DNA of 64,000 bases from a virus, in the IMG/VR virus record IMGVR_UViG_3300042453_004886, positions 64,001-128,000 of that record, one strand, 5' to 3'. The notes under the pieces are model-generated. The model did not search any database, was not told the origin of the DNA, and saw only the letters and a list, made by a program, of their open reading frames with translations. Below are positions 35,801-54,180 of this stretch, piece after piece. Position 1 is the first letter of the stretch. Each line of letters starts with the position of its first letter. The position numbers were made by a program, and so were the translations under genes.

Positions 35801-38800
35801 GTGTAGCTAATACAATCAAAGCACTCCAAAACGAAAAGAAATACGGTCAAGAAGTAGCTACACTAGCAAAATCATTTGAAGCTCTAAGAAAAGACCTTTT
35901 CTGGGTTAATCGAGTAAAAGAACTTAAAAAGATTGGCGAGGGCGGAGAGTTTGAAAGCGTTCAGGAAGCAAGAGATATTATCTTTAATAAGTTATCAAAA
36001 GTAACCGATTTTATAAGATACTTTGAAGATACCCCAAGACTAGGACTGGACAGAGATATAATTCTTCAAAGATTAAGGAAAGACAGAGATAAACTATTAA
36101 AAGAAAAATCAATCGTTGACACAATTATTAAAAAAGAACAAAGAATTATAGACAACGAAGATAAAGTAAAAAATATAATACGTTCCATACAAAAAAAGAG
36201 TCAAGGATCTACTCTTGGTGAAGTTTTAAGTGAAAGAACAAAAGTTACAGAAGAAAACGGAGAAAAAAAGAAGTCTGTATCAACAGAAGTTATTGGATCC
36301 TTTGGTCAAGCAAACGTTGACTTGTTACGGGTACAACTAAGCATATTTGAAAACAAAGCCAGAATGGCCGGGCTGTCTAAGGGTGTAGCAGACGTTCTTC
36401 ACGACACAATAAGAATGAAGAAGTTTGAAATTGCACTCTACGAAAATAGATTAAACCCTGCTGACTTAAGAAAAGGTATAGATACTTTAAAAAATCTAAT
36501 TAACTCAACAAATAATATGAGCGATAAAAAGTATTACGGAAAAATGCTTGATGTTGCTCAGTACAGGTTAGAAGTATCTACAGGCACTAAACGTAGTAAA
36601 AACAACCTTATAAAGAGAAGCGCAGAAGACGTATCTCATGCTCTCTATGCAGCCGGATTTAGCGTTCTTCAAGCTGTGGAAGATGAGTCTTCTCAAAACT
36701 CATTTGGCAGTGAAGACGAAACTGTAAAATATGTAAGAAAAGTTCAAAACCTTCTTGGTGTTTCTAATGTAAAAAATGCACTTCAACTAAGAAGTTACTT
36801 AAGAGGCATAGGGCTAGAATCTGCTTACAGCAGAGCGGGTGCTCCACTTGGATCTGAAGGTGGTGTCAAGTCTGCTCCTATATTCTCAATAAGAGAAGGA
36901 AATAGAATATTCAGACAGCTTGGTACAAGTTTTGAACTTGATGAAAAAGCCAATAGACGTTCTATATTCTTACACATGAGCGGAATGGCTCTTAATCTGG
37001 GTGACTTTGACGGTGACGTTGCAATTCTCACAACTATTGAAAGATACACATTCCTTGAACACTTAAAGCACAAACTCGGTGGAGAAGATAACCTTATTGA
37101 CGTAGAAAGATCTGCAAAAGAACTCATCAAGCAGCTTGAGCAAGCGGGTGCAGATAAAGGCACCATAGATGAATATAGGCTTCTTATAAGCAAACAACGA
37201 GATCCACTTACTAATAACTTGCTAAACCTGAAAGAAGAATATTTAAATCTAAAAACTTCTGTTACGGACTCAGCAAGAAGACTTGTAAGCACTCACATTG
37301 CCGAATACTGGGGTCTTGGAGAGAATGGTCTTTCAAAGCTTGCAGCAAACTATTATGGTAACGCTTACACGGATCCTGATGCTGACAAAGAACTTCTTGA
37401 ACAAAGACTTGCTGTCAAGCTCAATAAGTTCTCGAGTGATATGTACAGCAGCCTTCGCGAAAAAGCATCCAAACTCATAGATAAAAAGATAGCTCAATCA
37501 GACAATTTTGATAAGACTGCAAAAGCTTATGAAGCTCTTCAAGATAACGAAGAATACAGAAAGCATGTAAGAGAGTGGGTTAATAAAGATTCAGGAGCTC
37601 TTGTTGAAGAAAGTTTGGGTGATTTAAAAAACATTTTCAGCACAATAGCCGGTGTTGAGATGTCAGCAGATGAGATTTTAAGATTTGGTATCAAGACTGC
37701 TTTTGCATCTACAAAACTGATTGGTAACTTCTCTAATTTGCAAAATACCCAGCACGCACTATCCACCATGAGCAAGTTTGCAAGTCAAAAATTTTACACT
37801 GACGTTATAAACACATATGCAAATGTAAGTGGTGGGGACATCAGAGCAGTTGCTCCAGAAATTGAGTCCCACTACCAGCAGCTTCAAAAAGAAAAGCAAG
37901 AAACGTTAAATATTATTGTTAGCAGTAATCAGGGTTTCATGCAAAGACTGCAGCAGGCAACTCGTGATGCAATCAAGCCAAAAACTTCAGGTGCTACAAG
38001 CGAATCCAATAAAGGTGTCCTGCAAGAGCTTTATGAAGATAGCGTACTCATTCGAGCTATTGATGCTTCTGTAGCTCTTGTAACGGGTAAATCTTTATTT
38101 GGAAATTCTGTTAACTACAGTTTTAACAGCGCAAACGAACAAAAAATTCTTCGTAGCCTGAATGTTAACGAACTTATCAAGATTGAAACTACACCAGATG
38201 GTTCAACTCGAGCAACCTTAAAAACCGACTACGATTCAAGCTTAAAGTTTATTGTAGACGAATTGCTTGATCCTCTCGTGCGTGCTTCCAAAGACGAGCA
38301 CAGAGCAAGGGCTCTTTTACAAGAACGCTGGAAAGGAAAAGAACTAGACGCAGCTCAAAAAGACGCTTTGACCAACATAGATATCCAAGCAGAAACTCAA
38401 GCACTCATGTATGGAAAACTTCTTATAAACCAGTTCCAAGACATCAAGAGAATTTTGAAATACAGAAAAGCAGCTGAGTCCGCCGGGGAGGACGGATTTG
38501 AAAGAGCTCGATTCGGATTATCCAGACAGCTTAAACTTGTGTTCTTGCAAGAACACATGCGAGGTGGTCGCCTCAATACACCAGAAGCATTCCAGCGCGT
38601 TGTAGGAGACGTTTATCAAGATTACGCAAAAGCTGAGATGCTTGATTCTCTTGAATCCGATGCAAGAGCACTCGACCCCACAGGAAGGCTTTACGACAGC
38701 TTGCTTCCGGCTTTCAGTAAATATGCTCAGGGTGAAAATGAACTTGAAATTTATAAAGCCCTCGTTCGTAAAAACCCGGAACAATACACGGCTCTAGGAA

Positions 38801-39759
38801 ATATTCACATGGCGCTGGTAGAAGCCGCCACTGGTCAGAATCCTTTGGAAACCGTACAGCAAGTCATGCAGCTCAGAGAAGAAAAAGTAAAAGAAGTTTA
38901 TGCTGGACAAATCGAGAAAAAGATAGAAGCAGTCGGTAAAGCTAAAACGGTTGTATCGATGGCTATAGGAGGTTTCCTTGTAATGGGCGGTTTGGCCGCA
39001 ACAGAAGCTCACGCCGCAACAACTGATAAAGATAAAGAATCACCCTTCAGGGATAAAAAAGATTCTCTTACAAAAGTTATTACTGAAACCATCTTTAACT
39101 GGGAACCCCATTTAACCGCTGCTTCTATATACTCCCAGCAAGGGTTTGATACCAATTCTAAACTTGTTGCAATCGCTGGCTTAACCGCAACCATGGCTGC
39201 AGCTCATGTAGCAACTGGTTTTTCTGAAAGACTCGTCAAGAAAGCAGGATTCAGATCTGCAGACGGAATGACCTTTAATAAAAACTTGGAACACGCGGGC
39301 GGTTTGCTTGGAGTAGTTTCTGCTGTATTTGCAGGAAGTGCTATTTCAGGAATTCAAGAAGAATTCATGAAGCGCGAAATGAGAACCCCTGTCAGCAATC
39401 TTGCTACTCAAATAACTGAAGAACTTGCTACCCGAGACGCAATTATCATGGCTTCTTCTGAAGATATTACTGATCTAACAGACCAAGAAGATGCAGTAGT
39501 TGAACTAGCTTACGATGAAAATGGAGATGCTATTCCTGTTCCAGAAGGACTTACTAGAGATGAGGCGCTTAACATGAGTGACGAAAATCACTCAAGCGTT
39601 CCTATGATGCTTACAGAGCGCGACAACATGGGTATTCCAGAAGTCTACAAGAATCCCGTGCTTGATGAAAATGGAAAAGTTACACGTCCTTCAAGAACAC
39701 CGCAAGAAAACTACAAAGATGCCCTTAGAGAGCACAGAATTAGAACTGGTGGTTTGTAG
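29866..39759 (+). CDS. Giant virion protein: PLD-family domain + two-barrel virion RNA polymerase + probable tape-measure/membrane segments
   Basis: ATG at 29866 and TAG at 39757-9 are on the + strand (track label wrong). HYKFLGVD..IGSFN (H299), HAKTALIY..SGSAN (H532), SRAGAP (R2323), NLGDFDGD (D2380), three hydrophobic segments after about aa 3025; next to the G/GT chaperone. Confidence 0.8.
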   Translation: MDRFSNPRDFRYKEEIETTLVNLFNAVLDEYAEADVFSEDTAEAVDSSTKLKLEAIQVIKDFLQDKYTGNIFNDVMTLTQEGNLKFIAEELINLYGDPQNLSVLLDDFSKDGIKGTHAGVIKHLSKFSQDFVKASFFSRFNDQQDLKDDGTFDYRLGRSFLTSKYSKLSRVNRLGAPELGLDARGMVDFYRNLVKDSYSPGLVSGYNIGRAMLGSIVGAKESVQIGMFQMEHGILLDALRLQQELGTKVNLMLSPPQKRDGAPQEVGFFNVIARNLLGGTSVEFDKQVMEGVAKAGYAHYKFLGVDLESSLENRKVMIGSFNMTRGALGQIIDQSRNLVSKHPHNFELGFLIDYGLVKNHGLRKSAFERITKEAKDYAGWLFNRGNDRLKPLGYNPEHILSGPQTYEKIRQALGFGDGVNPENLTKKVNAFFALNVITDRGMGVDSEGRPTGRSISGNNPQEGFYHTLEQKLRASTESKITILISSNFKGIRNQNIGGSQDAFESGAFKALQDLKRQYQDRLEIIETHEHIHAKTALIYGESGELDIISGSANVSGQGFGGESQDVGLYLSSKHFVKASKYLEKQAENVLGYLQTLAVRPVLRKSLVRESNAISETLMRELKLRLSPELMKRVTFTAIQHMGSDGEIYQKGTRVSISLNIKGVRGKGRFYVANALSFDVFEYLGEPTRLYIPQLYKIIDPVLGMHPEQRVNMDPKAPGSTGMRGALTVQEFSAAAVVAAGIDSAYSQLNSEAAKLTGSYSEHILDKTVFARMIKKSMKEGFRETFKNFEGLPLGQSSHARSFKRLIFGLTVRELSKGTSLSETEKKVLLEQARLMGLNKTESGLVSRILRKVAALFGFKTPDTKVASLLDLSDYPEVDPHTLDRSFYLDEFDYDTDLMGNKIQHKANAPSEVIRVLENGTRVEKSKLRFTVLAQSLSHEAPANIFITEGFNELYAFNYDSTAETLYGFLNAAKPDALPQRQQNMLGSDTGLLTVTGSAAEYIKKVKLKIKGPEKDSAGNVLESRARFGNRFNILLMNGMGESTFMNSKVMNGAYVTREIKKTKSYFTGSVGGSITNDEISFIDQRLKRDKEGNWTLYDPKSKKYERVSQEDGKPLLTIDIDQRNIKLLEFFNSEGVKTDSTMPNPIYDMSGHKLEIMDIQTSMGASGKLEIEFNYRVLSPAGGSMRILSSGLKMVTVGVKGGFFDVIAGGINKSIESLKSEDLTYRTKEGGSLSLGTYGEFYQDVFTMWGKKIDPSMSEKQKESMTGEMIHLMVGESIVKTGVVFLQTAAIRLEEKRFYSRVVDIFSDDAKFDVFKRMLESFEKQSESAKKGTGINRTILKGINHLLGGSGLDEVKLTEELKQKNRKNLLKSIRSIRNKLLRGDDFGTVLSSISDKHALTAAAALHVMQSMLAGVKADSFMEETSRRLSGAAITPMNEPQFDFSTPVPLVLDDAFSVKAFPMSNRMSALMPGNQAGSHTQTVLGALSRNLGVEKRDRQLSELFSLAYLGGSATQIAQRALGKKSKVSIKDLSSFHQDYMPSLLIGGVNFEPLAYAFAGMSREHEAAFGTITDSVRRLTYEDLSPEEIKIEEAKAIEAVKSLGTPGTRIAQNFSSGVQSARSDMKIFELMKKYKVGSPRMRIPVFEFTAVGSGRNRFSASNLVAYEEVSLLSAETLTELQGVFSDFSSEIFDLHVEAMRGLHKVRALRLQMAATGGLVTKETRDQYLGYLDKIRRLQSEIENLAATDVQKSGANIIGGFAVIANFIPGFHNMKLGEDQNIRTFETSIIVGDEVMMRVMNKAEKAMKAADSLVDRKEFKEKLSKKAQKAMDNHLKKVTKAADVKFEAALLESTDDAKGYTSKKSGVGKILEGFTNLGADYYKKMSTISSTSTFLNSLINISEAFETIYGVQISGKTNIDDVVKTFTRSDDTSYFRTQGSQDFSQNIQQLKALKHAQSVLGTGTSTYLDSELQVHKENILKGVANTIKALQNEKKYGQEVATLAKSFEALRKDLFWVNRVKELKKIGEGGEFESVQEARDIIFNKLSKVTDFIRYFEDTPRLGLDRDIILQRLRKDRDKLLKEKSIVDTIIKKEQRIIDNEDKVKNIIRSIQKKSQGSTLGEVLSERTKVTEENGEKKKSVSTEVIGSFGQANVDLLRVQLSIFENKARMAGLSKGVADVLHDTIRMKKFEIALYENRLNPADLRKGIDTLKNLINSTNNMSDKKYYGKMLDVAQYRLEVSTGTKRSKNNLIKRSAEDVSHALYAAGFSVLQAVEDESSQNSFGSEDETVKYVRKVQNLLGVSNVKNALQLRSYLRGIGLESAYSRAGAPLGSEGGVKSAPIFSIREGNRIFRQLGTSFELDEKANRRSIFLHMSGMALNLGDFDGDVAILTTIERYTFLEHLKHKLGGEDNLIDVERSAKELIKQLEQAGADKGTIDEYRLLISKQRDPLTNNLLNLKEEYLNLKTSVTDSARRLVSTHIAEYWGLGENGLSKLAANYYGNAYTDPDADKELLEQRLAVKLNKFSSDMYSSLREKASKLIDKKIAQSDNFDKTAKAYEALQDNEEYRKHVREWVNKDSGALVEESLGDLKNIFSTIAGVEMSADEILRFGIKTAFASTKLIGNFSNLQNTQHALSTMSKFASQKFYTDVINTYANVSGGDIRAVAPEIESHYQQLQKEKQETLNIIVSSNQGFMQRLQQATRDAIKPKTSGATSESNKGVLQELYEDSVLIRAIDASVALVTGKSLFGNSVNYSFNSANEQKILRSLNVNELIKIETTPDGSTRATLKTDYDSSLKFIVDELLDPLVRASKDEHRARALLQERWKGKELDAAQKDALTNIDIQAETQALMYGKLLINQFQDIKRILKYRKAAESAGEDGFERARFGLSRQLKLVFLQEHMRGGRLNTPEAFQRVVGDVYQDYAKAEMLDSLESDARALDPTGRLYDSLLPAFSKYAQGENELEIYKALVRKNPEQYTALGNIHMALVEAATGQNPLETVQQVMQLREEKVKEVYAGQIEKKIEAVGKAKTVVSMAIGGFLVMGGLAATEAHAATTDKDKESPFRDKKDSLTKVITETIFNWEPHLTAASIYSQQGFDTNSKLVAIAGLTATMAAAHVATGFSERLVKKAGFRSADGMTFNKNLEHAGGLLGVVSAVFAGSAISGIQEEFMKREMRTPVSNLATQITEELATRDAIIMASSEDITDLTDQEDAVVELAYDENGDAIPVPEGLTRDEALNMSDENHSSVPMMLTERDNMGIPEVYKNPVLDENGKVTRPSRTPQENYKDALREHRIRTGGL

Positions 39760-42054: not shown

Positions 42055-42062
42055 CTCTTTTT

Positions 42063-43778: not shown

Positions 43779-43801
43779 TTAGCTCTTGAAAGGAGCTAAA
43801 G

Positions 43802-44227: not shown

Positions 44228-44262
44228 CCTCCTTCCTGAGTGACTTCCTGAAACCTTTTTTA

Positions 44263-44340
44263 GAGGGGCACACGGCTTAGGCTGTGTTGCCCCTCTTTAA
44301 AAAGAGGGAATGGTGCGTGCATTGGGCAGCACTTAACCCC
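44263..44340 (+). promoter_or_regulatory. Class-1 element, copy 5
   Basis: Hairpin + CCCTCTTTAAAAAGAGGG + GGTGC-N18-AACCCC. Confidence 0.7.
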
Positions 44341-44364
44341 CTTTCATGTTCAGGAAGGATCCAC

Positions 44365-44550
44365 ATGAACATGAATGCCACCCGGAGCGATGTGTTCCGG
44401 GCTGTCGTGCAGGAGAACAAAATCCTGCGCGAGCGTCTTGAGGAATGTCAGAGGTTGATCAATCTCTTTTCGGACCTCGAGACGCGCCTTGCTGAAGAAA
44501 GGGCAAGGCAAATTGAGTTTGAACGGGAGCTCTTCTGGAGCTGCCGTTAA
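44365..44550 (+). CDS. Small coiled-coil early protein (61 aa)
   Basis: Start moved to ATG 44365 after AGGAAGG; the track start lies inside the promoter element. Confidence 0.7.
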   Translation: MNMNATRSDVFRAVVQENKILRERLEECQRLINLFSDLETRLAEERARQIEFERELFWSCR

Positions 44551-44563
44551 AACTCACCTTTTT

Positions 44564-44632
44564 GAGAGGGGGCAGGGATGCCCCCTCTTTAAAAAGAGGG
44601 ACCGGTGCGTACTGGATGCATTGGTTTACCCC
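44564..44632 (+). promoter_or_regulatory. Class-1 element, copy 6
   Basis: GAGAGGGGGCA-GGGA-TGCCCCCTCT TTAAAAAGAGGGACC GGTGC-N18-TACCCC. Confidence 0.7.
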
Positions 44633-44672
44633 TTTGTTACGCGGCCATCTCTAAAAGAAAGGAGGTGATTAC

Positions 44673-44801
44673 ATGATGGAGTCGGATTTCCTCCGGGCCG
44701 AAGCGGCCCTCGAGGAGGCGATCCTCCGGGCTGAAGAAGCTGCCGAAACGGCGGCAGCCCGGGAGGAGTGGGCCGCTGCTTTCGCGGCGGTCTGGGGTTA
44801 G
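44673..44801 (+). CDS. 42-aa acidic helical leader peptide (not in the ORF track)
   Basis: AAGGAGGTGA RBS; MMESDFLRAEAALEEAILRAEEAAETAAAREEWAAAFAAVWG*. Confidence 0.8.
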   Translation: MMESDFLRAEAALEEAILRAEEAAETAAAREEWAAAFAAVWG

Positions 44802-44861
44802 TTTTTTCGTTTCTTTTCCTACTCGGCGCTAGCGCCGCAATGCGATGAGTAGGCTCTTTTT

Positions 44862-44937
44862 GAGAGGGTAGTAGCTTTAGCTGCTGCCCTCTTTAAAAAG
44901 AGGGACCGGTGCGTACTAGCACTAAAGGTTTCCTCCC
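44862..44937 (+). promoter_or_regulatory. Class-1 element, copy 7
   Basis: Hairpin + CCCTCTTTAAAAAGAGGGACC GGTGC-N18-TCCTCCC. Confidence 0.65.
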
Positions 44938-45011
44938 AGAAACAAAGGAAGATGAGCTCACTCGGTGAGATCTTCCTTGCTGTCAGAGACAGCAATGTTG
45001 CGTACATAAAA

Positions 45012-45072
45012 GCGGGGTCTAACCCCTCTTTAAAAAGAGGAATTGGTGCGTACACGCATTAAATGTCTTCCT
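45012..45072 (+). promoter_or_regulatory. Class-1 element, copy 8 (short hairpin)
   Basis: GGGG-TCTAA-CCCC TCTTTAAAAAGAGGAATT GGTGC-N18-TTCC. Confidence 0.65.
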
Positions 45073-45171
45073 TTTTTCCCCGGATTTTTTATCGCGTAAT
45101 CCGGTGATCGCCATATACTTGGCGCCCTTTGCTCGGGGAGAGAGCGTTTTCAGCGCATGAGGAGGAAACCA

Positions 45172-48100
45172 ATGCGTATGAACAAATTGGTGAATCAAAA
45201 GCACCAAGCGCTGGCGAAGCTGGCGGTGGAGAGATTCAAGAAAGCACAGGAAGCTCCTGAGGAGAAACCTGAGCCGACTATGGATCTCATCGCTCGGGCG
45301 AACGAGAAGGCTGTTGAATACAGCCGGCTTCGTAAGCTTGCCCTTGAAGTTCTCTCTCATGAGAGCTCTGAAGAGGGCTGTGTCGAATTCGGGATCAAAC
45401 CTGAAGACGACATGGGCGTAATTCGCCGCAAAGTGGTGAACCGTTTCAAAGCGGGTAACCACTCGGTGGTCCGGGGCGAGCTCAAGACGCTGTTCCCTCG
45501 TCACGAGGAGGACATCTACGAGCCCGCCGAGGTCACCAAGCAGGATGTTGCCGACATGGCACTCCTGTTCGGCGCGGAGTGGCCCACCGACGAAGCCTTC
45601 GGCTTGTTCGGTGTTACCTTTGACTGGGACAATGCCGGAAGGCTTGTTGTCAACGGTAAGAAGGCTCTGAGGAACGTCATCGCCGTTTTCGGTGGTGGTA
45701 TGCCTCACGAGCTCTTTCAATATCAGACTGCAGCTCTGGTATTGTTGGCCGCCCAAGGTGCTGCAGCCCAGGAGCGTGAGAGGTTTGCATCAAACGCAAG
45801 CCCTTACCAGGTCCAGAAAGCGCTGACGAAAGCCTTCCAGAAGGTGATCAACAGCGGGCCTGTGAACAAGGGTAGCGAACAACCGGCCTACGGGTTTGTT
45901 GATGCAACCTGTGCGCTCCGACTCAAGGAGATCGTTCGACCGATCGAAGTCCTGCTGGTAGAAGATAGCATCGTCTACCTGGAGCAGATTGATCCCATTC
46001 TTGGCAACAAGATGGTGAAAGAACTGCACCCGGACTACGGTGTGGATATCGAATCGGGTAACTACCGGCCTGCCGGTAAGATGCTCGACGAGAACCACAT
46101 CGCGGTAAGGTCGAGCGATGGGGCCAAAAGTGCCAAGCGCACCCGTATGGCCTCAGGTGAGCAACAGGAACCGGTGAATCCTGTGCTCTCTCGTGTTTCC
46201 TACAGAGGAACTCGAGCAACCGGCTCCCTGATCACCGCGTTCCTTGCGCCGTGTGCAGACCCGTTCTTGGCGGGTGGTCCTGGCGGTAGCCTTGATTTGT
46301 CGGGTGAAACCGGCGTCAAGACCAGCTACTGGGACGACGCGCTGCACAGCGGCACGAGCTTCGATATCCGTTCCGCCGAGGATAGAGAAGCCTTCCTGAA
46401 CACCCTCCCCAGCGATGGGGATGTTCTCGGCGAGACCCTTAGCGTGTTTGGCGCCCCACCTGTCAAGGTGCCTTCAGACGCTAGGGGCGTGGTCACTAAG
46501 GTGACCGCGGCCCCCGATGGAGCCTACCGCAATATGCGGTGGCAGGTGCATAGTCGTTTCAAGGAAACTTCTGTGTTCACCAAGCTCCGCGGATCAATCA
46601 AGACGATGGTCTCTGCAGGCCTAGTTGCGAAGATCCGACTCGGGGAAGGGTCCATCACCCACTTCGACATCCGCAATAGCGGACTTGCCCTGTCGGGGTG
46701 GGAAGGAGAGGATTTGTTCCTCTCAGGAGACGCATTCAAGGGAACCGGGAAAGGCAACAGCCAATTCCGGGTGGAAGTCGCCGTTGAAACGATATGGCAT
46801 TTCCTTCCTTTGGAAGCGGACAGTCTCCTATCCTCTCTGCTCCCGGAGGCGCTCTACAAGGGCGGAATCGTGGAGTATGACGAGGCGTTCGATCTCGACG
46901 GGGCTTACGAGCCTCTGATGAGGGAATTCGAGCGTCGTTTTGCCAAAGTCGCTGACCTTGGTAAGACAGTCGAACTGCCTGAAGTCTGGGACAAGTGGTT
47001 GCTTGAGCATGCCACGAAGGTCGGGCTGAAGGTGGAAGACCTCGTCTGGAGCCCCTTCCAAAAGGAGGGAGTCACTGGCAAGCAGGTGGCTTTCAACATT
47101 GGTAAGGGTATCACGGGGCTCCCAGAGTACCGCGTATTTGTACTTTACGACGATGGCTGCAAGGCTGTTGTGAGGACCACGACTGCGTTTAAAACCGCGA
47201 TGTTGGTCCGTGTAGAGTACGGAAGCGTCAGGAAGGCAGCCAGCAAGGCCCAACTTATGCTCGAAGTCGCTTACGGCGCTAAGGCAATGGGTCTTGACGA
47301 GCTCGCTGAGTTCCTCGAGTACGAGGGGCGTTCCAAAGCGCGTGCGGTGCTCAAGCTCATCCGTTCGGTTGGTCCCAAGGCAGCAATTGCTGAGGGAAGT
47401 CGAGTAATCGATGCCGCCGAAGCAACGGATGAGGACCTGCTTGAGATCGAAACCCTGCTCGAGAGTGATCTCGAAGCATGGCCGGAAGATCTTGTTATCG
47501 AATGCAAGTTCGAGGACAAGAACGGAAAGCTGTGGAGAGTTGTCTTGGCTCACCACTTGGTTTCGGTCATCTCAAAGGAGAACCCCCAGAGAAAGGCAAT
47601 CTCTGGCATTCTCGATGCGATCCTTAACAAAGATCGTACAAGGTTCGAGAATAACATCCGGGTCCTTGAAGGTGGGCTGTCTAACATGGTTTCTTTGGCC
47701 AATAAGAAACTGTGGAAGAAGGTTCACGCAGGTCCAAATGCTGCACACGGTAAGCGGGTCATCGTACTCGCCTCTCACGTGGGCTGCCATGAGGAACTGC
47801 TCGTCAATCCGTTCGGCAAAAATGCTAGACATCTAGCCAAGCAGAACGGTTGCGAGATCAAGGAACTGGATGGGCGGTGGGTAGTCGTCCAGCGAGCTCC
47901 ACAAAGCCTGCCGATTTTGCTGAGAATCGTGTTAACCACGGCTATCGGTAAGAACGTGTTCGGCATGACGGACCTTGCTGCCTCGATCGACAACGGCGAT
48001 CACGATGGAGACACTATCCTCGTGACGGTCATCCCTGACCAAATCGCCGAAGTGACCCTGCAGAAGTACAACGCTCGCAGAAAGTCGCTGTCGATTCACG

Positions 48101-48975
48101 AGGGTACGCACAAGGCGGATCCGTATCACTGGATCGAGCAAAACACGTTTGTGGATGGAAAACACAACGTCTGGGCTCGTCCTTCCGTGGTTACGGTTGA
48201 AAACTTGCGCAAGTACGACGAGGCGGGCATCCGGGCATATACACTTGAAATGCCTTCGGATGCCAACAGGGCACACCTCGCCCTTGCCATCGCTTCGATG
48301 CAGCTTCCCACAGGCTGGGGGGAGTTCAGCATCGAGGAGGCCAACGGCCTGATGTTCAGCGTCTACGAGCCGGAGCTTGGTGGTTTTAACCCCAAGTTCG
48401 CTGCTGCTCATGCCGCAATTGCCAATCTTGGCAATGAACGTCTCAAGGAGTTCCTCCAAGCTACGGATAAGCTCGACCTTCGGGAAGACTTCGCCAAGGC
48501 TTGGCTTCGGTCCGCAGATGCCAAAAGCTGGTGTCAGAAGACCGTGAGTTACGCAAAGTTTAACAGCAATGGAAAGCTTTCCGTATGGAACCTCACCCAG
48601 GCCACGGTCCCTCAGGAGCAGAGGCTCGCAGCCGTACCCAGGTTAGTTGCTTTTGCAATGAAACTCCTGTCAGTTGGGAACGTCAACAACCAGTTGATGC
48701 TCAATCTGGACAAGGTCGTTGTCGAGAGCATGGTCAAGGAGACCAAGGGCGAAAACCGGCGTTACTACCCGGTTCTAGTCAAGGGTAAGCCAGAAGTGGT
48801 CGAGCTGAAAAGCGTGATCAAGAAACTGGCAGCAAAGGGAGTCCCGGGCGCTCAGCGCTTGGAGATCTGGATGGACCACATCCTCCCTGAGTTCTCCAAG
48901 TACCACCCCAAGGAGTACCATGCCGCAATGGCCTTCAACGGGGACTACGATTGTTCCGATTCGGAGGAAGAATAG
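45172..48975 (+). CDS. Single-chain two-barrel RNA polymerase-like protein 1 (non-virion type)
   Basis: Start at ATG 45172 after GAGGAGG; VVVQRAP (R at 47893) lies 35 residues before the first Asp of NGDHDGD (47998), the E. coli beta' R425-D460 spacing; TKLRGSIK resembles the beta double-Lys motif. Confidence 0.8.
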   Translation: MRMNKLVNQKHQALAKLAVERFKKAQEAPEEKPEPTMDLIARANEKAVEYSRLRKLALEVLSHESSEEGCVEFGIKPEDDMGVIRRKVVNRFKAGNHSVVRGELKTLFPRHEEDIYEPAEVTKQDVADMALLFGAEWPTDEAFGLFGVTFDWDNAGRLVVNGKKALRNVIAVFGGGMPHELFQYQTAALVLLAAQGAAAQERERFASNASPYQVQKALTKAFQKVINSGPVNKGSEQPAYGFVDATCALRLKEIVRPIEVLLVEDSIVYLEQIDPILGNKMVKELHPDYGVDIESGNYRPAGKMLDENHIAVRSSDGAKSAKRTRMASGEQQEPVNPVLSRVSYRGTRATGSLITAFLAPCADPFLAGGPGGSLDLSGETGVKTSYWDDALHSGTSFDIRSAEDREAFLNTLPSDGDVLGETLSVFGAPPVKVPSDARGVVTKVTAAPDGAYRNMRWQVHSRFKETSVFTKLRGSIKTMVSAGLVAKIRLGEGSITHFDIRNSGLALSGWEGEDLFLSGDAFKGTGKGNSQFRVEVAVETIWHFLPLEADSLLSSLLPEALYKGGIVEYDEAFDLDGAYEPLMREFERRFAKVADLGKTVELPEVWDKWLLEHATKVGLKVEDLVWSPFQKEGVTGKQVAFNIGKGITGLPEYRVFVLYDDGCKAVVRTTTAFKTAMLVRVEYGSVRKAASKAQLMLEVAYGAKAMGLDELAEFLEYEGRSKARAVLKLIRSVGPKAAIAEGSRVIDAAEATDEDLLEIETLLESDLEAWPEDLVIECKFEDKNGKLWRVVLAHHLVSVISKENPQRKAISGILDAILNKDRTRFENNIRVLEGGLSNMVSLANKKLWKKVHAGPNAAHGKRVIVLASHVGCHEELLVNPFGKNARHLAKQNGCEIKELDGRWVVVQRAPQSLPILLRIVLTTAIGKNVFGMTDLAASIDNGDHDGDTILVTVIPDQIAEVTLQKYNARRKSLSIHEGTHKADPYHWIEQNTFVDGKHNVWARPSVVTVENLRKYDEAGIRAYTLEMPSDANRAHLALAIASMQLPTGWGEFSIEEANGLMFSVYEPELGGFNPKFAAAHAAIANLGNERLKEFLQATDKLDLREDFAKAWLRSADAKSWCQKTVSYAKFNSNGKLSVWNLTQATVPQEQRLAAVPRLVAFAMKLLSVGNVNNQLMLNLDKVVVESMVKETKGENRRYYPVLVKGKPEVVELKSVIKKLAAKGVPGAQRLEIWMDHILPEFSKYHPKEYHAAMAFNGDYDCSDSEEE

Positions 48976-48980
48976 CAAAC

Positions 48981-49055
48981 TGATCGGGAACTTGGCGGCT
49001 TTGTCTTAAGAACGCACAGAAAGTGCAAAAGCAAAGCTGCTAAGTTACCTGATCA
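48981..49055 (+). ncRNA. Conserved 3' structured RNA element, copy 1
   Basis: Long stem (AACTTGGCGGCTTTG / CAAAGCTGCTAAGTT, two G-U pairs) capped by GAACGCAC-AGAAA-GTGCAA. Confidence 0.55.
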
Positions 49056-49080
49056 AGACAACTAAATAACCTTTTTAACA

Positions 49081-49154
49081 GAGGGGGCTGGTTCATTCCA
49101 GTACCCCTCTTTAAAAAGAGGGACCGGTGCGTCGGTGCGTCCAAGGTGCAACCC
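49081..49154 (+). promoter_or_regulatory. Class-1 element, copy 9
   Basis: Hairpin + CCCTCTTTAAAAAGAGGGACC GGTGC-N18-CAACCC. Confidence 0.7.
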
Positions 49155-49190
49155 TTTTGCGGCCACTTAATCACGAAAGGAGGTGATTAC

Positions 49191-49310
49191 ATGATGGAAG
49201 ACTTCCTCGCGGAGGCCATCCTCCGGGCTGAAGAAGCTGCCGAAACGGCAGCAGCCCGGGAGGAGTGGGCAGCTGCTTTTGAAGCCCTGGACCAGTGGGT
49301 CTGGGGCTAG
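49191..49310 (+). CDS. 39-aa acidic leader peptide, paralog of 44673..44801 (not in the ORF track)
   Basis: AAGGAGGTGA RBS; MMEDFLAEAILRAEEAAETAAAREEWAAAFEALDQWVWG*. Confidence 0.8.
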   Translation: MMEDFLAEAILRAEEAAETAAAREEWAAAFEALDQWVWG

Positions 49311-49374
49311 TTTCTTGTTTGTTTTCCTTTCCTGCTCGGCGCTAGCGCCGCAATGCGTTGAGTAGGCTCTTTTT

Positions 49375-49449
49375 GAGAGGGTAGTAGCTTCGGCTGCTGC
49401 CCTCTTTAAAAAGAGGGACCGGTGCGTCGGTGCGTCCAAGGTGCAACCC
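49375..49449 (+). promoter_or_regulatory. Class-1 element, copy 10
   Basis: Same hairpin as copy 3 + GGTGC-N18-CAACCC. Confidence 0.7.
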
Positions 49450-49548
49450 TTTTTGCAGGTTTTTCTCGTGGAACCTGATGATCGCCATACAGCTGGCGCC
49501 TTTTGGTCGGGGAGTGACCGCATGCTAGTCGAAAGAAAAGGTAGGACT

Positions 49549-52500
49549 ATGATGTCCGAATACCTGAAGCTTCGCGAATCGGTAGCAAGTGCTCTGTTGG
49601 GTGACACCAACGAGCACGGGCTGCCGCCCGTCGAGGCCGGCTTCGAAGCCTTCAGCAGACAAACTGCTAAGGCGCTGAAATCCTTGGGAATGGCATTCCA
49701 GGGTGCAACCCTTGTGGAAGAAGAGTTTAACAGACTCTTCGGAAACTTGGGCGATCACGGGTGGGAGCTCACCCCCGTGGACCAGATGGACCTTGTTGTC
49801 CTCTCGGTTATGCTGGGAGCGCAATTCCAGGGATGGGAGACAATTTCCTTTGATAAGGAGATTCTCTCGTTCGATCAGGCTGGCAACCTGGTCGTCGGTG
49901 GCCGCAAGGCTATCGGCCCCGTGCTGCTCGTGCAGAGCGTCAGGGATCTTGGGAATCCCGTCGTCGTAAATACGGCGGTGCTTTCCAAGTACCAGGCCGC
50001 GGCCTACGTCATGCTTCTCGGAGCACGTCGTGGCCTGAGTTCCGCCTTGAAGGCGTGCGACCGGTTCCTCATCGATCCCGAACAGGGGTTCATCGATGCG
50101 GATCGGAAAAGACTCCTTGACGGGAGTCTCCGCGTCGTCGAGGTAGAGCTCCTTGGCAATCTGCTGGAGCCCGTCGAAAAGACCGACCGTCTGCTCGTGA
50201 ACTCGGTGGTTCGGGAACTGCTTCCCAACTACCGCGTTCGCGCCTCAAAGGACAGCTACGCCCCATTCGGAAAGCTGGCCCCGGTACCTGGTTTCCTCGA
50301 CGTTCCAACCGTCGACGAGGCCAAAGGCGTGAAGCGGGCGGATGCCGCAGATGTCACTCAGTGCAGACCGGTTAACCCCGAGCTCTGCGCTCTGTCGTAT
50401 CAAGGCACGCGGGGCACAGGCGTTCTCTTGGACGTCTTGCTCGCCCCGTGCGGTCTCGCGACACTCACCGGGTTCGGAGACGGAACCGCTGCAGTGCTCT
50501 CCCGAGAATTCGGGGACAAGGCAGCCTTCCATGATCCGTTCGTGGTGAGGGCCACCAGTTTCGCGGTCAAGAGCCAGGAGGACTGCGAAAAGTTCATGGC
50601 GACTATTCCCAAGGTAGGGGAAGAACTCGTCGGCAGCAAGTTGAGCGTGCACGGTGCGCCAACGAAACTGTTGCCCCTTGGCAAGAAGCTCGTCACCGGG
50701 GTCTCCCAAGCCACGGAAGACCCCACGTATGGCAACATACGCTGGGAAGTGAGGGGCGAGGCAATCGACCGTAGCGGAGATGGTAAGCTCCGCGGGCTTC
50801 TCAAAGCCATGACGGTGTTCCCAGCCGTCAAGATCCACCACGGGCATGGCTTCCCGTGGAAGGAACTTACCAGGAACGAACTCGTCATCGCCCTTCCGGG
50901 CAATGTTAGGACGAAGTTTGACCTCCTAGCCGGGATGGCGTGCTGGAAAGGCAGCGGAAAAGGCTCGGGTAAAAACCGGGTCGAGACCGCCGTCCAGACC
51001 TTCAAGCGGCACCTTACCCATGATGAGTTCGAAACTCACATGGGGGAGGTACTCCCCGCTGAGGGCTTCGACGCCGATGGCACCCCACGCTACGACGAGA
51101 CCGTAGACGTGGGTGGAGGATACTCACAGCTGGTCCAGTCTTTCGAGGAGCACTATGCTGTTCCTCTTAGGATTGGCCGTCTCATCGCCAAGGACCTGTG
51201 GTCCAGGCTTCTGGATGCTTACCTCAGACAACTGGGTAAGCGGAAAGCAGACCTGGAGTGGGAGCCCACCCCGATTGGTGGCCAGGCAGCCAGCTTGGAA
51301 ATCATGAAGGGAATCACGGGCAAACCGGAGGTGCTTACGTTCGTCGTCCTTGACGATGGGCGGACAGCGCTTGTGCAGCAGACAACTGCATTCACCACAG
51401 CCATGGTGCTGAAGGTGGAGCACACGTCTGTTGCCCGGAGCGTGTCGATCGCGCACATGATGCTGGACGCTGCCATAGCGTTCAAGGCACTTGGGCACGA
51501 GAAGACCGCTCGTTACCTTGAAGAACAGTCCAGGACCCCTGCAAAGGGTGTCGAGCGGCTGTTTGACTTGGTAAACGGGCACATCCCGGTCAGCCACAGG
51601 ACCGTCGGTCTCCACCCCGGCAAAAGCCGGCTGCTCCCCGAGGGAACCGCCATGCTCAAGGCCATTATCGAGAGCGATCTCGAGACCTGGCCTGCTGATC
51701 TCTGCCTCAGTGCAGGGCTCAACGAGCAGGAGTTCTGCGTCGACAGGACCGTTCTGGCAACCATGCACGCGGAATCGCCGCAGCGGGGTGCCGTGAAGGG
51801 GCTGATCGAAGCAGCTCTTGGCGGGGATCTCACCCGGTTCCAGAACAATTTCCGGACGCTTCGCGCCGCTTTGCACAAGATGCTCAGCGCCGCGAACAAG
51901 GGTTTCTTCAAGAAGCTCATGTCTGGACCGCGAGGCTCCCATGCCAAGCGTGTCCCGATCACCTCGTCCGGTGCTGCTCATGATGAACTTCAGATCCACC
52001 CAAAAGGGCAGGTCTGGAGGAATTTGGAAACCATCTTGGGAGAGAAGATGGTGGACGGGCAGTATGTCCTGCTTCTCCGGGCGCCGATGAAGACCCCGAG
52101 CTTGCTCAGGGTCAAGTCGTCGTTCTCCGTAGGGGTGAACAAGTTCGCCGTCTCCGAGAAAACCGCGTCGTCGTCACGAGGTGATTTCGATGGAGAAGGC
52201 GTCGTAGTCGTCCCGCTGTCCCAAGAGGCCGTCGAGGAGCTTCTGAGCGCTAACTACAGCGCTTGGGAGCTCAGCTTGAAAGCTCACTCGATCAAGACGG
52301 GAGGCGAATTCCACTGGGAAGACGCCAACCTGCTGATCGATGGAAAGCACAACGTTTGGGGTAAAGCCAAGCGTGTGTCGATCCAGAGCTCGATCGCGCT
52401 CGATGAGGGAACCATCCGGGCCTACCGCATGGAAATGCCCGGCGACGCCAACAAGGCCACCATGGCCCTCATGTTGGCTGCAATGGGCAAGTACCAGCTG

Positions 52501-53127
52501 AACAACGTCCTTGGGCTTCTCTTCGAAGTCTGGGAGGCGGAGCTTGGCGGGTACGATCCGAAGTTTGCTGATGCCCACAAGGCAATGCAGATCGAGGATC
52601 CCATCGAGCGCGAGGAGGAGTTCCTCAAGGCATGCGCCAAATTGAACTTCACGGAGGAGTTCGGGCGTGCTTGGCTTTCCATCTCCGCGGCGAAAACCTC
52701 AACGATGAAAGCCCTTCAGAAAGGCTATCTCATTGGGGAGCACATGACGTTCCGGCACGTCATCAGCCAGAGCACTCCTGCCGACGAACGATCGATGTCC
52801 GCATGGATGGCGATCGCGTTCGCGATGAAGCTGCTTTCGAGCGGTGAAATCAACAACGAACTCATGCTCAACCTCGATATTGCCCGAGTTGAGAATTGGG
52901 TGGTTGTCGGTAAGGACCGGAAAGGCAAAGACATCCAGCGCCCCACCGGAGAAAGCTACGACCTTGCACAAGGTATCAGCTTCCTCTGGAAGCAGGGGCA
53001 CCCTGCGGCTACTCGGCTGCAGCACTGGATGATGGCGGTTCTTCCGAGGCTGCGCGAGTTGAGCAAGGAGAAATCCTACAGGGCTTTCAGCCCGGACATG
53101 CTCAACAGCTCATCTGAGGAAGACTAG
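49549..53127 (+). CDS. Single-chain two-barrel RNA polymerase-like protein 2 (variant DFDGE motif)
   Basis: Start placed at ATG 49549 (track start 49441 is in the promoter element); collinear paralog of protein 1; LLLRAP (R at 52078) 35 residues before the first Asp of RGDFDGE (52183); GDGKLRGLLK. Confidence 0.78.
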   Translation: MMSEYLKLRESVASALLGDTNEHGLPPVEAGFEAFSRQTAKALKSLGMAFQGATLVEEEFNRLFGNLGDHGWELTPVDQMDLVVLSVMLGAQFQGWETISFDKEILSFDQAGNLVVGGRKAIGPVLLVQSVRDLGNPVVVNTAVLSKYQAAAYVMLLGARRGLSSALKACDRFLIDPEQGFIDADRKRLLDGSLRVVEVELLGNLLEPVEKTDRLLVNSVVRELLPNYRVRASKDSYAPFGKLAPVPGFLDVPTVDEAKGVKRADAADVTQCRPVNPELCALSYQGTRGTGVLLDVLLAPCGLATLTGFGDGTAAVLSREFGDKAAFHDPFVVRATSFAVKSQEDCEKFMATIPKVGEELVGSKLSVHGAPTKLLPLGKKLVTGVSQATEDPTYGNIRWEVRGEAIDRSGDGKLRGLLKAMTVFPAVKIHHGHGFPWKELTRNELVIALPGNVRTKFDLLAGMACWKGSGKGSGKNRVETAVQTFKRHLTHDEFETHMGEVLPAEGFDADGTPRYDETVDVGGGYSQLVQSFEEHYAVPLRIGRLIAKDLWSRLLDAYLRQLGKRKADLEWEPTPIGGQAASLEIMKGITGKPEVLTFVVLDDGRTALVQQTTAFTTAMVLKVEHTSVARSVSIAHMMLDAAIAFKALGHEKTARYLEEQSRTPAKGVERLFDLVNGHIPVSHRTVGLHPGKSRLLPEGTAMLKAIIESDLETWPADLCLSAGLNEQEFCVDRTVLATMHAESPQRGAVKGLIEAALGGDLTRFQNNFRTLRAALHKMLSAANKGFFKKLMSGPRGSHAKRVPITSSGAAHDELQIHPKGQVWRNLETILGEKMVDGQYVLLLRAPMKTPSLLRVKSSFSVGVNKFAVSEKTASSSRGDFDGEGVVVVPLSQEAVEELLSANYSAWELSLKAHSIKTGGEFHWEDANLLIDGKHNVWGKAKRVSIQSSIALDEGTIRAYRMEMPGDANKATMALMLAAMGKYQLNNVLGLLFEVWEAELGGYDPKFADAHKAMQIEDPIEREEEFLKACAKLNFTEEFGRAWLSISAAKTSTMKALQKGYLIGEHMTFRHVISQSTPADERSMSAWMAIAFAMKLLSSGEINNELMLNLDIARVENWVVVGKDRKGKDIQRPTGESYDLAQGISFLWKQGHPAATRLQHWMMAVLPRLRELSKEKSYRAFSPDMLNSSSEED

Positions 53128-53132
53128 CTGTG

Positions 53133-53200
53133 TCACAAATAAACTCGAGCTATCCCACGAACGCACACGAAGTGCAAGGGATGCTCGAGTTTTGCTGTGA
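53133..53200 (+). ncRNA. Conserved 3' structured RNA element, copy 2
   Basis: Different stem sequence (AAACTCGAGC/GCTCGAGTTT, ATCCC/GGGAT) with the same cap GAACGCAC-ACGAA-GTGCAA. Confidence 0.55.
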
Positions 53201-53227
53201 TTCGATCAACTAAATAACTTTTTAACA

Positions 53228-53301
53228 GGGGGGCTTGGTTCATTCCAATGCCCCTCTTTAAAAAGGGTAACTGGTGCGTACAAAAACTCACAATCTACCC
53301 C
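53228..53301 (+). promoter_or_regulatory. Class-1 element, copy 11
   Basis: Hairpin + CCCCTCTTTAAAAAGGG + GGTGC-N18-TACCCC. Confidence 0.7.
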
Positions 53302-53483
53302 TGAGGCGGCGTCCCTATGAACAACGTGCTCTATGAGCACGGATTTGGTTTGGCTGGGGCCTTCGGCCCCAGGCAAACCGTTCGGACACGCCTGCGGCGT
53401 GGGGGATCACGCCTGCGGCGTGAGGGACTGCGTCCCTAGGACTATCCAGGCCTTGCGGCCTGGATAAGTTGGGGCGAGGTAAG

Positions 53484-53554
53484 TCGTGCTCAAACCGGAG
53501 GGGAGGGCTGGCGCCCTCCCCTCCGGTTTGGCACAGCGGCGCTTCGCGCCGCGG
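53484..53554 (+). repeat. Two-hairpin element, copy 1 (copy 2 at 54181-54251)
   Basis: CAAACCGGAGGGGAGGGC-TGGC-GCCCTCCCCTCCGGTTTG then GCGGCG-CTTCG-CGCCGC. Confidence 0.8.
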
Positions 53555-53636
53555 TCTCCGTTGTTGGGGTTTGTGGGTTTCAGTGGGGTTAATTGACGGG
53601 GAATACCCCCAGTCACACTCAACGCAAGGAGGAACC

Positions 53637-54107
53637 ATGCGACACTTGATCGATCCCACTAGTCTCCGGGAAGTCACCAGCTCGGCCGGCAACACGGCCC
53701 TGCTGGGGAAGTTGATCACGGGCGAGGACTTCGCTATCCAGTCGAGTCAGAAGTTCGATGGCGCAGCTCAGATCCACGAGCTGCACACCCGGCTGACGGA
53801 GAGCGGGAACCCTGTCTGGCTCTGGGGACTTGCCCCCTCGGAGCGGACCGGCAGGCTGGAGTGCTGGGTCAACCGGGCCCTGCTGCTCGGATCTCTGTCG
53901 GACGAGCAGACTCTCCGGAAGCTCCAAGCGGTCTACCCGCAGGCGAGCTTCTTCTCCGGATGGGGCATCGAGTCCGAGGAGGACGCGCTGACGCGCCTCC
54001 TCCTCGGAGCTCAGGCTACCCAGGCTCCCGCTCCCCAGGCCGCTGCTCCCGTCACAAAGGCCCGCCGCAAGGCTGAGGCCAAGGCCGCGGAGGAGCTGCC
54101 CTTCTAG
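53637..54107 (+). CDS. Hypothetical protein with an acidic ...EELPF C-terminus
   Basis: Start moved to ATG 53637 after AGGAGG; 156 aa. Confidence 0.75.
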   Translation: MRHLIDPTSLREVTSSAGNTALLGKLITGEDFAIQSSQKFDGAAQIHELHTRLTESGNPVWLWGLAPSERTGRLECWVNRALLLGSLSDEQTLRKLQAVYPQASFFSGWGIESEEDALTRLLLGAQATQAPAPQAAAPVTKARRKAEAKAAEELPF

Positions 54108-54180
54108 CGAAGGGCAGCTCGGGGACCCCAGAACGCTTCGCGTTCTGGGGTCCCAACCCCAGCGGTTCACTTTGTCTGTT

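Follow-up and report, generated by a model that had tools for sequence, protein, structure and literature searches.

Tandem paralogous genes of an uncultured freshwater phage encode a new protein family with a predicted single-chain two-barrel RNA polymerase fold

Results

Two tandem paralogs share RNA polymerase-like motifs

The window analysed here is a 64,000-nucleotide stretch (positions 64,001 to 128,000 of IMG/VR record IMGVR_UViG_3300042453_004886) of the genome, about 195 kb, of an uncultured freshwater phage. It contains two large RNA polymerase (RNAP)-like genes, arranged in tandem on the + strand. Paralog 1 (45172..48975; 1267 aa) likely starts at the ATG at 45172, which lies behind an AGGAGG, and paralog 2 (49549..53127; 1192 aa) at the ATG at 49549. 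The frames are open over 45157..48975 and 49441..53127, which gives 1272 aa counted from the first ATG and 1228 aa counted from a GTG at 49441, respectively; the database copies, P0003 and P0004, have the same lengths as the proteins counted from ATG 45172 and ATG 49549. The two proteins align collinearly from end to end (BLASTP, 562 bits, 33% identity over 1249 columns), their N-terminal ~110 residues being the most diverged stretch. These coordinates and sizes agree with an earlier note on this DNA, which had described two collinear paralogs of about 1270 and 1190 aa.

Two motifs pointed out in that note could be read directly from both translations. The first, R-A-P followed by a predicted metal-binding loop in the putative beta'-like barrel, is encoded at 47893..48012 (+) in paralog 1, as R913-A-P and G-D948-H-D-G-D952 (1272-aa numbering), and at 52078..52197 (+) in paralog 2, as R844-A-P and G-D879-F-D-G-E883 (1192-aa numbering), where the third acidic residue is Glu. 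The first Asp lies exactly 35 residues after the Arg in both proteins, the same spacing as between R425 and D460 of E. coli beta'. The second motif, K-L-R-G-S-I-K in paralog 1 (46582..46602, +; residues 476–482) and K-L-R-G-L-L-K in paralog 2 (50785..50805, +; residues 413–419), is a candidate for the basic-residue pair of a beta-like barrel.

An exhaustive HMMER search yielded 24 metagenomic relatives, with 12 full-length members. In the full-length, 12-member alignment K413, R415, K419, R844, P846, D879, D881 and G882 are invariant, while in the 24-member alignment R844, P846, D879, D881 and G882 are invariant and K413 is present in at least 90% of rows. D883 is found in 23 of the 24 members, the sole exception being the Glu of paralog 2; the strict DxDxD triad is thus present in paralog 1 and absent from paralog 2 (DxDGE). 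Since catalytic-motif residues are invariant in both alignments, across proteins that share just 15–36% identity, the sequence evidence indicates that the motifs common to the paralogs exceed chance.

Paralog 2 has the longer branch (1.27, versus 0.79 for paralog 1), the longest in its clade. Paralog 1 retains 66 of 71 family-conserved positions, and the substitutions at conserved positions in paralog 2 are mostly conservative. Both genes are covered by contigs, all of them short, from three other lake or freshwater runs; the pieces are identical to the window in two of these runs, and a 2025 freshwater run holds a strain that is 3–5% diverged. None of the sequencing runs listed as holding the sequence is an RNA run. 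A tandem pair also occurs in one relative (P0007 and P0006, on one contig), while most relatives found on 12–16 kb contigs show a single copy. Given the intact frames, the conservative replacements, the presence in other runs and the tandem pair in a relative, both paralogs look maintained. A relative's neighbouring 412-aa gene was considered as a homolog of the window's 414-aa or 483-aa ORFs; comparison showed no homology.

The paralogs belong to a new sequence family

Neither the paralogs nor their neighbours were hit in scans against Pfam and PHROGs (for Pfam and the paralogs, at E ≤ 1), and the PF05183 HMM matched none of the 12 family members even at E 10. Searching PDB sequences with each paralog by phmmer gave chance matches only, and among 50,697 phage records tblastn detected nothing resembling the paralogs. 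From 5.8 billion proteins, a word-indexed search retrieved the query protein alone, and scanning IMG/VR with family patterns found no relative. Six-frame searches of the whole 194.6-kb genome with PF00623 and PF00562 (E ≤ 10), which matched 14 of 14 control genomes, detected no other RNAP family; a search with PF00940 was likewise empty, as were its controls. By these searches the two proteins form a new, unannotated sequence family.

Profile methods gave fainter signals. Sub-threshold matches of the family profile in the PDB fell at the NADFDGD barrel: in Thermus/Taq beta' the alignment runs without gaps from the R-A-P onwards, and in the beta' subunit of the AR9 nvRNAP it covers the DxDGD segment only. 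The best hhalign match to E. coli RpoC fell at residues 418–475, where the R-A-P...GDxDG stretch aligned without gaps; with E. coli RpoB as the target, hhalign showed no similarity. A weak lipoyl/hybrid-barrel-like signal was present just ahead of the basic motif (E 0.03). In an ESM-Atlas feature search, 23 of the 30 nearest clusters fell in the PF05183 set, and a shape search of the same resource returned only matches at TM 0.27–0.34, to viral clusters carrying HTH/sigma-r4.

The predicted structure spans both halves of an RNA polymerase

The AlphaFold2 model of paralog 2 had a pLDDT of 83.8 and a pTM of 0.82, and when it was compared with the PDB using Foldseek, all 40 matches at E ≤ 1e-3 were RNAP large subunits. 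In VIA-align the model matched QDE-1 with a Z score of 12.6 (471 residues aligned, model residues 97–1176), gp64 of the P23-45 group and P74-26 gp62 with Z scores of 11.6 and 11.2 (402–426 residues, model 178–1175), and RDR2 with a Z score of 10.7 (481 residues). Model residues ~77–741, which include the basic motif, aligned to Rpb2/beta chains (Z about 10.4–11, 340–400 residues), and residues ~743–1160 to Rpb1/beta' chains (Z about 10.4–11). Residues 794–904 superposed on the double-psi barrel of the p97 N-domain (rmsd 1.8 Å, 88 residues), and a 34-residue helix (945–978) follows soon after this barrel, with the beta'/Rpb1 alignments continuing to ~1160. For a model of 1192 residues, Z scores of 10–13 are moderate, and differences in domain arrangement kept the TM-scores low.

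The high-confidence model, together with matches that are almost all to RNAPs and span beta-like and beta'-like halves, supports the conclusion that both genes encode proteins with a predicted single-chain two-barrel RNAP fold, as had been proposed from the motifs. The family combines a predicted beta'-type double-psi barrel with an R-x-P strand and a DxDGD loop, features of the two-barrel RNAP superfamily, and the strict triad is found in paralog 1. Structure prediction with Foldseek had been named beforehand as the check on the proposal; the outcome was not a model lacking two barrels, and RNAPs were matched.

A shared leader cassette precedes each paralog

One leader cassette of ~380 nt, with the same promoter-like element, lies ahead of each paralog. 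The leader of paralog 1 (44560..45171, +) has conserved hairpins, promoter-like cores at 44587, 44891 and 45028, and an ORF for an acidic 42-aa peptide (44673–44801); that of paralog 2 (49080..49548, +) has conserved hairpins, cores at 49109 and 49404, and an ORF for an acidic 39-aa peptide (49191–49310). The element consists of a conserved hairpin plus CTTTAAAAAGAG..ACTGGTGCGTAC and stands ahead of every gene in a GC-rich block. All 11 copies are on the + strand, each 59–150 nt upstream of a start codon, the eleventh being just past paralog 2 (53230..53300). For the copy in the paralog 2 leader, the folding energy is −55.3 kcal/mol (z −3.3). The element is also kept beside relatives' RNAP-like genes that are just 22–36% identical. 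No further conserved promoter class emerged from k-mer searches upstream of the middle and late genes, outside the GC-rich block. Instead of being a promoter, or in addition, the element may serve as a terminator.

As the same cassette and promoter-like element precede both genes, the two paralogs should be switched on together. The common leader and element point to co-expression, which weakens the earlier proposal of a stepwise cascade between the two enzymes.

A homolog is present in a cultured Microcystis phage

The Fukuivirus homolog of the family is ORF65L of phage MaMV-DC (AGR48630.1, 1677 aa), annotated 'hypothetical protein'. BLAST and HMMER both left ORF65L undetected, the latter when the family profile was run over the genomes of Ma-LMM01 and MaMV-DC; hhalign later revealed the homolog, matching it to the 24-member profile with a probability of 98.7% (E 4.4e-16, 550 columns). 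The aligned region includes K-L-R-G-x-x-K and R-T-P...G-D-A-D-G-D in the same order, and on this profile evidence ORF65L belongs to the same family as both paralogs. The BFVD entry A0A075BUT7_2 matched the paralog 2 model in Foldseek (E 1.7e-17, TM 0.59 by target). We infer that ORF65L corresponds to UniProt A0A075BUT7 and that this entry is its second half, the entry's length of 839 being half of 1677. MaMV-DC is kin of the phage studied here, judging by their portal proteins (27% identity, E 6e-37). ORF65L is ~900 aa longer at its N-terminus than the window's paralogs, and it is the sole large gene of its kind within the 82 kb of MaMV-DC examined, whereas the window holds a tandem pair. These Microcystis phages are described in a paper on the group as having no RNAP (PMC9927357).

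A giant protein is a candidate third polymerase

The product of a gene at 29866..39759 (+) is 3297 aa long, carries a PLD domain at the N-terminus and hydrophobic segments at the C-terminus, and is a candidate for an injected polymerase. The gene adjoins the portal gene in the window, on relatives' contigs and in MaMV-DC. The protein contains RAGxP (residues 2323–2327) followed by GDFDGD (2379–2384), and this RAGxP...GDxDGD combination is kept in four of four homologs. Comparison of its profile with the RNAP family gave a weak match (E 0.035 over 47 columns), and an AlphaFold2 model of residues 2100–2800, built from 4 sequences, was unusable (pLDDT 49.5). Of the three polymerases in one phage that the earlier note had envisaged, two would be the RNAP-fold paralogs, while for the third the conserved motif has to be set against this profile match and this model. 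The giant protein is at present an unproven candidate for a virion-delivered polymerase.

Discussion

Much of the genome is probably transcribed by the phage itself. In the reading that we favour, and hold to be fairly probable, the products of the two genes are non-virion, single-chain two-barrel DNA-dependent RNAPs that are made together early, transcribe the middle and late genes and divide this labour between them. The N-terminal half of each protein would be beta/Rpb2-like and carry the conserved K-x-R-G-x-x-K; the C-terminal half would be beta'/Rpb1-like, with a double-psi barrel bearing R-x-P...G-D-x-D-G-D and then a long helix at the place of the bridge helix. Both genes would sit in the GC-rich early block, and the element there would be read by a polymerase already present before either paralog exists, most likely an enzyme brought in by the virion, the giant PLD protein being the candidate, and otherwise the host RNAP. 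Transcription of the AT-rich middle and late genes would then fall to the paralogs, made together at this early stage, and be divided by promoter class or by template state. Catalysis, a DNA template, the timing of expression, the reader of the element and the sharing of tasks are what we infer here. Paralog 1 would be the canonical enzyme, and the faster-evolving paralog 2, marked by DxDGE, a specialised or attenuated form; since the third Asp of its metal triad is replaced by Glu, its activity may be weak or absent.

The same replacement is central to a different and rather unlikely reading, in which the paralogs form one enzyme: paralog 1 would be catalytic and paralog 2 a weak or inactive partner that gives promoter specificity or regulation, either in a heterodimer resembling the QDE-1 homodimer or as a pseudo-enzyme subunit. 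With identical leader cassettes the two would be expected to be made together at similar levels, a second lineage also retains two copies, and the greatest divergence between the paralogs falls in the N-terminal ~110 residues; paralog 2, besides its long branch, alone among the 24 members alters the third catalytic Asp. However, Asp to Glu retains the carboxylate and all other conserved core residues are kept in paralog 2, which points to a functional active site. A single copy is moreover what most relatives found on 12–16 kb contigs show, as does MaMV-DC in the part examined, so that the enzyme would work alone.

One paralog could also have a job other than making mRNA, such as RNA-templated RNA synthesis, production of replication primers or production of a regulatory or decoy RNA. 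QDE-1 and RDR2, the best whole-chain structural matches, use RNA templates, the nearest feature-space clusters carry PF05183, and the altered metal loop of paralog 2 could shift its substrate or template preference. We nevertheless consider such a role quite improbable. QDE-1, gp64 and Rpb1/Rpb2 score within about 1–2 Z units of one another, so that no affinity to RNA-templated enzymes is shown, while the phage proteins of this fold that have been characterised, YonO, gp64, gp66 and gp96, are DNA-dependent transcriptases (PMC5467207; 10.1101/2022.12.01.518664). The phage has helicases, a clamp-loader-like ATPase and its own DnaG-type primase, and this primase weakens the priming role that had been suggested for one paralog. 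That the two-barrel fold is kept in a non-polymerase or non-functional protein, as a relic duplication or reused for another nucleic-acid function, would suit a family without an annotated member whose Microcystis phage relatives are published as lacking an RNAP (PMC9927357), but is very hard to reconcile with conservation concentrated exactly at the catalytic residues, with a metal-binding loop, RxP and basic motif that stay invariant at 15–36% identity, and with frames each open for more than 3.5 kb in genes that recur on short contigs of other freshwater runs.

Beyond the favoured reading of two early-made, DNA-dependent enzymes, a bolder scheme can be drawn, which we regard as doubtful. 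A host-independent transcription programme with three two-barrel polymerases would operate across the lineage, cultured Microcystis phages included: a PLD-fused, injected giant polymerase would act at hairpin promoters, followed by the two co-expressed single-chain enzymes, of which the DxDGE one would either pair with the canonical one as a heterodimer or differ in its preference for template or metal, as in RNA-templated or structure-dependent synthesis.

The locus adds a further two-barrel RNAP family, predicted from its fold, that Pfam and BLAST do not detect. It is unusual in offering a natural paralog pair that differs in the metal-binding loop and a clearly delimited, evolutionarily conserved cis-element, and the homolog in cultured Microcystis phages makes the family experimentally tractable. 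Should that homolog be active, the view that these bloom-controlling phages depend fully on transcription by the host (PMC9927357) would have to be revised, and a compact new polymerase–promoter pair would become available to study.

To our knowledge, single-chain two-barrel RNAPs are few and only a handful have been studied, namely YonO, gp64/gp62, gp96, gp66 and QDE-1; they have been used for reasoning on the origin of cellular RNA polymerase. P23-45 gp64 and P74-26 gp62 (PDB 8F72, 8F5M) are likewise single-chain, two-barrel, non-virion phage RNAPs, but at ~600 aa they are half the size of the window's paralogs. The structural match to gp64 is of the same order as those to other RNAPs, and hhalign of the family profile against P23-45 gp64 showed no sequence similarity (E 0.26, probability 0.2%). 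P23-45, a siphovirus of a thermophile, has one non-virion enzyme, in contrast to the tandem pair described here; gp64 is an early gene behind a phage-specific conserved motif, and the phage also encodes a giant virion RNAP fusion (10.1101/2022.12.01.518664). YonO of SPbeta is a phage late-gene transcriptase (PMC5467207), and its structure was absent among the matches listed for the paralog 2 model. QDE-1 and RDR2, eukaryotic RNAi polymerases, hold both barrels in one chain and have a DxDGD loop. The likeness to PF05183 is at the level of fold and language model: the nearest language-model clusters carry this domain, yet its HMM is unmatched by the family. The hybrid-barrel-like signal, if real, would be a beta-type feature, which the RdRP/YonO group is without (PMC7824862).

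Cellular and viral multisubunit RNAPs have the identical RAP-35-DxDGD spacing in beta', but consist of two or more subunits totalling more than 2500 aa, as opposed to one chain of ~1200 aa here. The basic motif is spaced K-6-K in the paralogs and K-8-K in the GDKxxxRHGxKG of beta, as in the RpoB sequence. Possible analogues of the 3297-aa protein are the virion RNAP fusions gp96 of P23-45, which is fused to the tape measure, and gp66 of phi14:2, a crAss-like phage; the likeness lies in giant size, location in the structural module and the DxDGD motif, and neither is reported to have an N-terminal PLD domain. Two polymerase sets per phage are the rule in phiKZ/AR9-like phages (PMC7598289).

Tandem RNA polymerase-like paralogs belong to a new sequence family

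The two collinear RNA polymerase (RNAP)-like genes described in the earlier note lie in tandem on the + strand, in open frames spanning 45157–48975 and 49441–53127. Their likely starts, at 45172 and 49549, have Shine-Dalgarno-like sequences upstream and give proteins of 1267 aa (paralog 1) and 1192 aa (paralog 2), exactly as long as their respective database copies, P0003 and P0004. The proteins are 33% identical across 1249 columns, and the RAP, GDxDG[D/E] and K-L-R-G-x-x-K motifs were found at the spacing claimed for them.

Neither paralog had a match in Pfam, PHROGs, PDB sequences, 50,697 phage genomes or IMG/VR. When a profile of both paralogs was run exhaustively with HMMER against 1.84 billion representatives, 24 other proteins were recovered, about ten of them full-length. 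Using paralog 2 numbering, K413, R415, K419, R844, P846, D879, D881 and G882 were invariant in 12 full-length sequences, and the last five of these residues were invariant in 24/24 sequences. D883 was kept throughout the 24 save in paralog 2, which has a glutamate. Paralog 2 has the longest branch within its clade and departs from 13 of 76 well-conserved positions, versus 5 of 71 for paralog 1; its replacements are mostly conservative, and other family members depart equally often.

In the family tree, one clade unites both window proteins with the database members P0005, P0006 and P0007. As P0006 and P0007 are encoded in tandem on a single contig of another assembly and are mutual closest relatives, the duplicate copies would have arisen, or been homogenised, separately in two lineages. 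Members of the other clades were each seen once on contigs of 12–16 kb.

Paralog 2 is predicted to adopt a two-barrel RNA polymerase fold

An AlphaFold2 model of paralog 2, built on a 12-sequence alignment, had a mean pLDDT of 83.8 and a pTM of 0.82, with only residues 19–71 and the last 19 residues weakly modelled. Foldseek comparison with the PDB gave 40 matches at E ≤ 1e-3, all of them large subunits of RNA polymerases (bacterial, plastid, archaeo-eukaryotic, poxvirus and plant Pol IV/V). On realignment with VIA-align, single-chain two-barrel enzymes took the top ranks: QDE-1 (Z 12.6; 471 residues, model residues 97–1176), gp64 of the P23-45 group (Z 11.6), P74-26 gp62 (Z 11.2) and RDR2 (Z 10.7). 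Multisubunit enzymes split cleanly over the model, with Rpb2/beta on residues 77–741 and Rpb1/beta' on 743–1160, and the double-psi barrel of the p97 N-domain superposed on residues 794–904 at 1.8 Å. K413 and K419 fall within the part aligned to Rpb2/beta, where they are candidates for the two active-site lysines.

Profile comparisons pointed in the same direction. The family profile matched beta' chains in the PDB at E 0.06–0.3, with a few chance matches interleaved; the Thermus/Taq beta' alignment was gapless from RAP through DFDGD, while that of the AR9 nvRNAP beta' covered the DxDGD segment only. With hhalign, the family's match to E. coli RpoC peaked at RpoC residues 418–475, and clusters carrying PF05183 formed the paralog's neighbourhood in a language-model search. 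The model and its structural matches thus speak against a lack of two barrels, which the earlier note had named as the refuting outcome. The observation is real and the RNAP fold assignment is sound.

The paralogs share a leader cassette within a GC-rich, probably early block

Both genes are located in a block at about 40,000–59,000 with a G+C content of 52–61%, compared with 36–46% over most of the remaining window; two capsid-module genes outside the block also reach 56%. The phage encodes tRNAs for AAA, AAY and AUA codons, namely tRNA-Lys(UUU), tRNA-Asn(GUU) and tRNA-Ile(UAU) (L015:858–929, 5523–5607 and 8248–8338). The G+C contrast and this tRNA set fit early genes that may be tuned to a GC-richer host and later genes that are AT-rich, which suggests a partitioning of codon usage between early and late genes.

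Every early-block gene is preceded by a promoter-like element, of which 11 copies, all on the + strand, lie between 41044 and 53268, each 59–150 nt upstream of a start codon. The element consists of a T-run, GAGGGG, a variable hairpin and CCCCT-CTTTAAAAAGAG-gaACTGGTGCGTAC, followed by ACCCcTTT. Its core reads as a bipartite signal, a hairpin and then the conserved CTTTAAAAAGAG..ACTGGTGCGTAC..ACCCcTTT; stems vary among copies with pairing retained by compensatory changes, and the downstream half keeps its sequence. The element also flanks RNAP-like genes on relatives' contigs (L003:4250; L004:17 and 4330; L005:232, 671 and 4502; L010:1051). Since the proteins encoded there are merely 22–36% identical, its retention argues for a protein-recognised signal that is co-inherited with the enzyme. 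Judged from sequence, the element is likely a lineage-specific promoter, possibly combined with a terminator.

A leader cassette of about 380 nt is present in triplicate, at 41720–42200 upstream of a 483-aa ORF, at 44540–45030 upstream of paralog 1 and at 49060–49550 upstream of paralog 2. Each copy opens and closes with an element; between the two lie an ORF of 39–54 aa and, after it, a 100-nt double hairpin that hardly varies from copy to copy. The small ORFs ahead of the two polymerase genes encode near-identical acidic peptides. A leader common to both paralogs predicts that they are switched on jointly by whatever reads the element, rather than one by the other, and so speaks against the cascade between them that had been proposed.

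Two further tandem paralogous early genes (40412–40915 and 41143–41640; 167 and 165 aa), with Lys-rich N-termini and Ala/Pro-rich repeats, each have their own element copy, and the block seems to have been assembled from duplicated promoter-gene units. At its AT-rich edge, a ~33-nt repeat (TTCAGTATCTCCACTAAATAAAGGTTTACCCCA-like) recurs five or six times within 60352–60672, at a spacing of 35–90 nt; it may mark an iteron-bearing origin or, alternatively, a second cluster of promoters. Downstream of paralog 2 are a GC-rich palindromic pair of 76 nt (53484–53559 and 54181–54256; 92% identity) and an exact 29-nt GC-rich palindromic pair (55116–55144 and 55301–55329), probably terminator-like hairpins.

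A giant PLD protein is a candidate third polymerase

The 3297-aa protein encoded at 29866–39759 (+) has a PLD domain, and its RAGxP...GDxDGD motif is kept in 4/4 homologs. A giant gene likewise adjoins the portal gene on relatives' contigs and in the cultured Microcystis phage MaMV-DC, where it is ORF82L (3560 aa; end at L022:1–1335). Of the three polymerases claimed, the two paralogs stand with an RNAP fold, but for the third there is the conserved motif and a match to the RNAP family profile of only 47 columns at E 0.035, which makes it a candidate and no more.

The window takes up bases 64001–128000 of a record that is 194,626 bp long and rated complete. Genes for a tail sheath, Mu-type portal and E-type major capsid protein mark the phage as contractile-tailed. 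Its portal is 27–30% identical to those of Microcystis Fukuiviruses and a Microcoleus phage (E 1e-35 to 1e-37), of which, by this comparison, the phage is distant kin. Outside the window, the structural region holds two more giant ORFs on its - strand, of 2667 aa (genome positions 18870–26873) and 3208 aa (48917–58543). Lake and freshwater metagenomes from several studies contain window sequence: short contigs identical to the window cover both RNAP-like genes in two 2024 lake runs, and those of a 2025 freshwater run represent a strain 3–5% diverged.

Function and relation to known enzymes

Most likely, both paralogs are non-virion DNA-dependent RNA polymerases that are expressed early and together, with paralog 1 canonical and paralog 2 specialised or attenuated. 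This function is inferred, as is the count of three polymerases. Alternatively, the two chains could form a heterodimer in which the second is regulatory; the joint leader and the glutamate at position 883 may be set beside this reading. One copy could instead serve a non-mRNA role, and QDE-1 does head the structural matches, but priming, one such job put forward earlier, is less likely because the phage carries its own DnaG-type primase. That the paralogs are a non-catalytic relic is a further rival, to be read against motif residues invariant in all 24 sequences.

Two early polymerases remain the preferred reading, and the sequence family extends to the cultured relative. The top BFVD match of the paralog 2 model was an uncharacterised MaMV-DC protein (Foldseek, E 1.7e-17), taken from its length to be ORF65L (1677 aa; L023:19225–24258). 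Profile comparison with hhalign confirms ORF65L as a homolog of the family (probability 98.7%, 550 columns, both motifs included). Two distinct uncharacterised proteins of the Acinetobacter jumbo phage vB_AbaM_ME3 (A0A172Q0S6 and A0A172Q021) were also RNAP-like against the model in BFVD, and a "minor tail protein" from an uncultured siphovirus likewise matched it. The Microcystis phage group has been said to be without an RNA polymerase (PMC9927357, 2023), and our literature search found no paper tying Microcystis phages to a two-barrel enzyme. The RNAP-like paralogs represent a new sequence family and, for a type of phage enzyme that was already known, a new arrangement.
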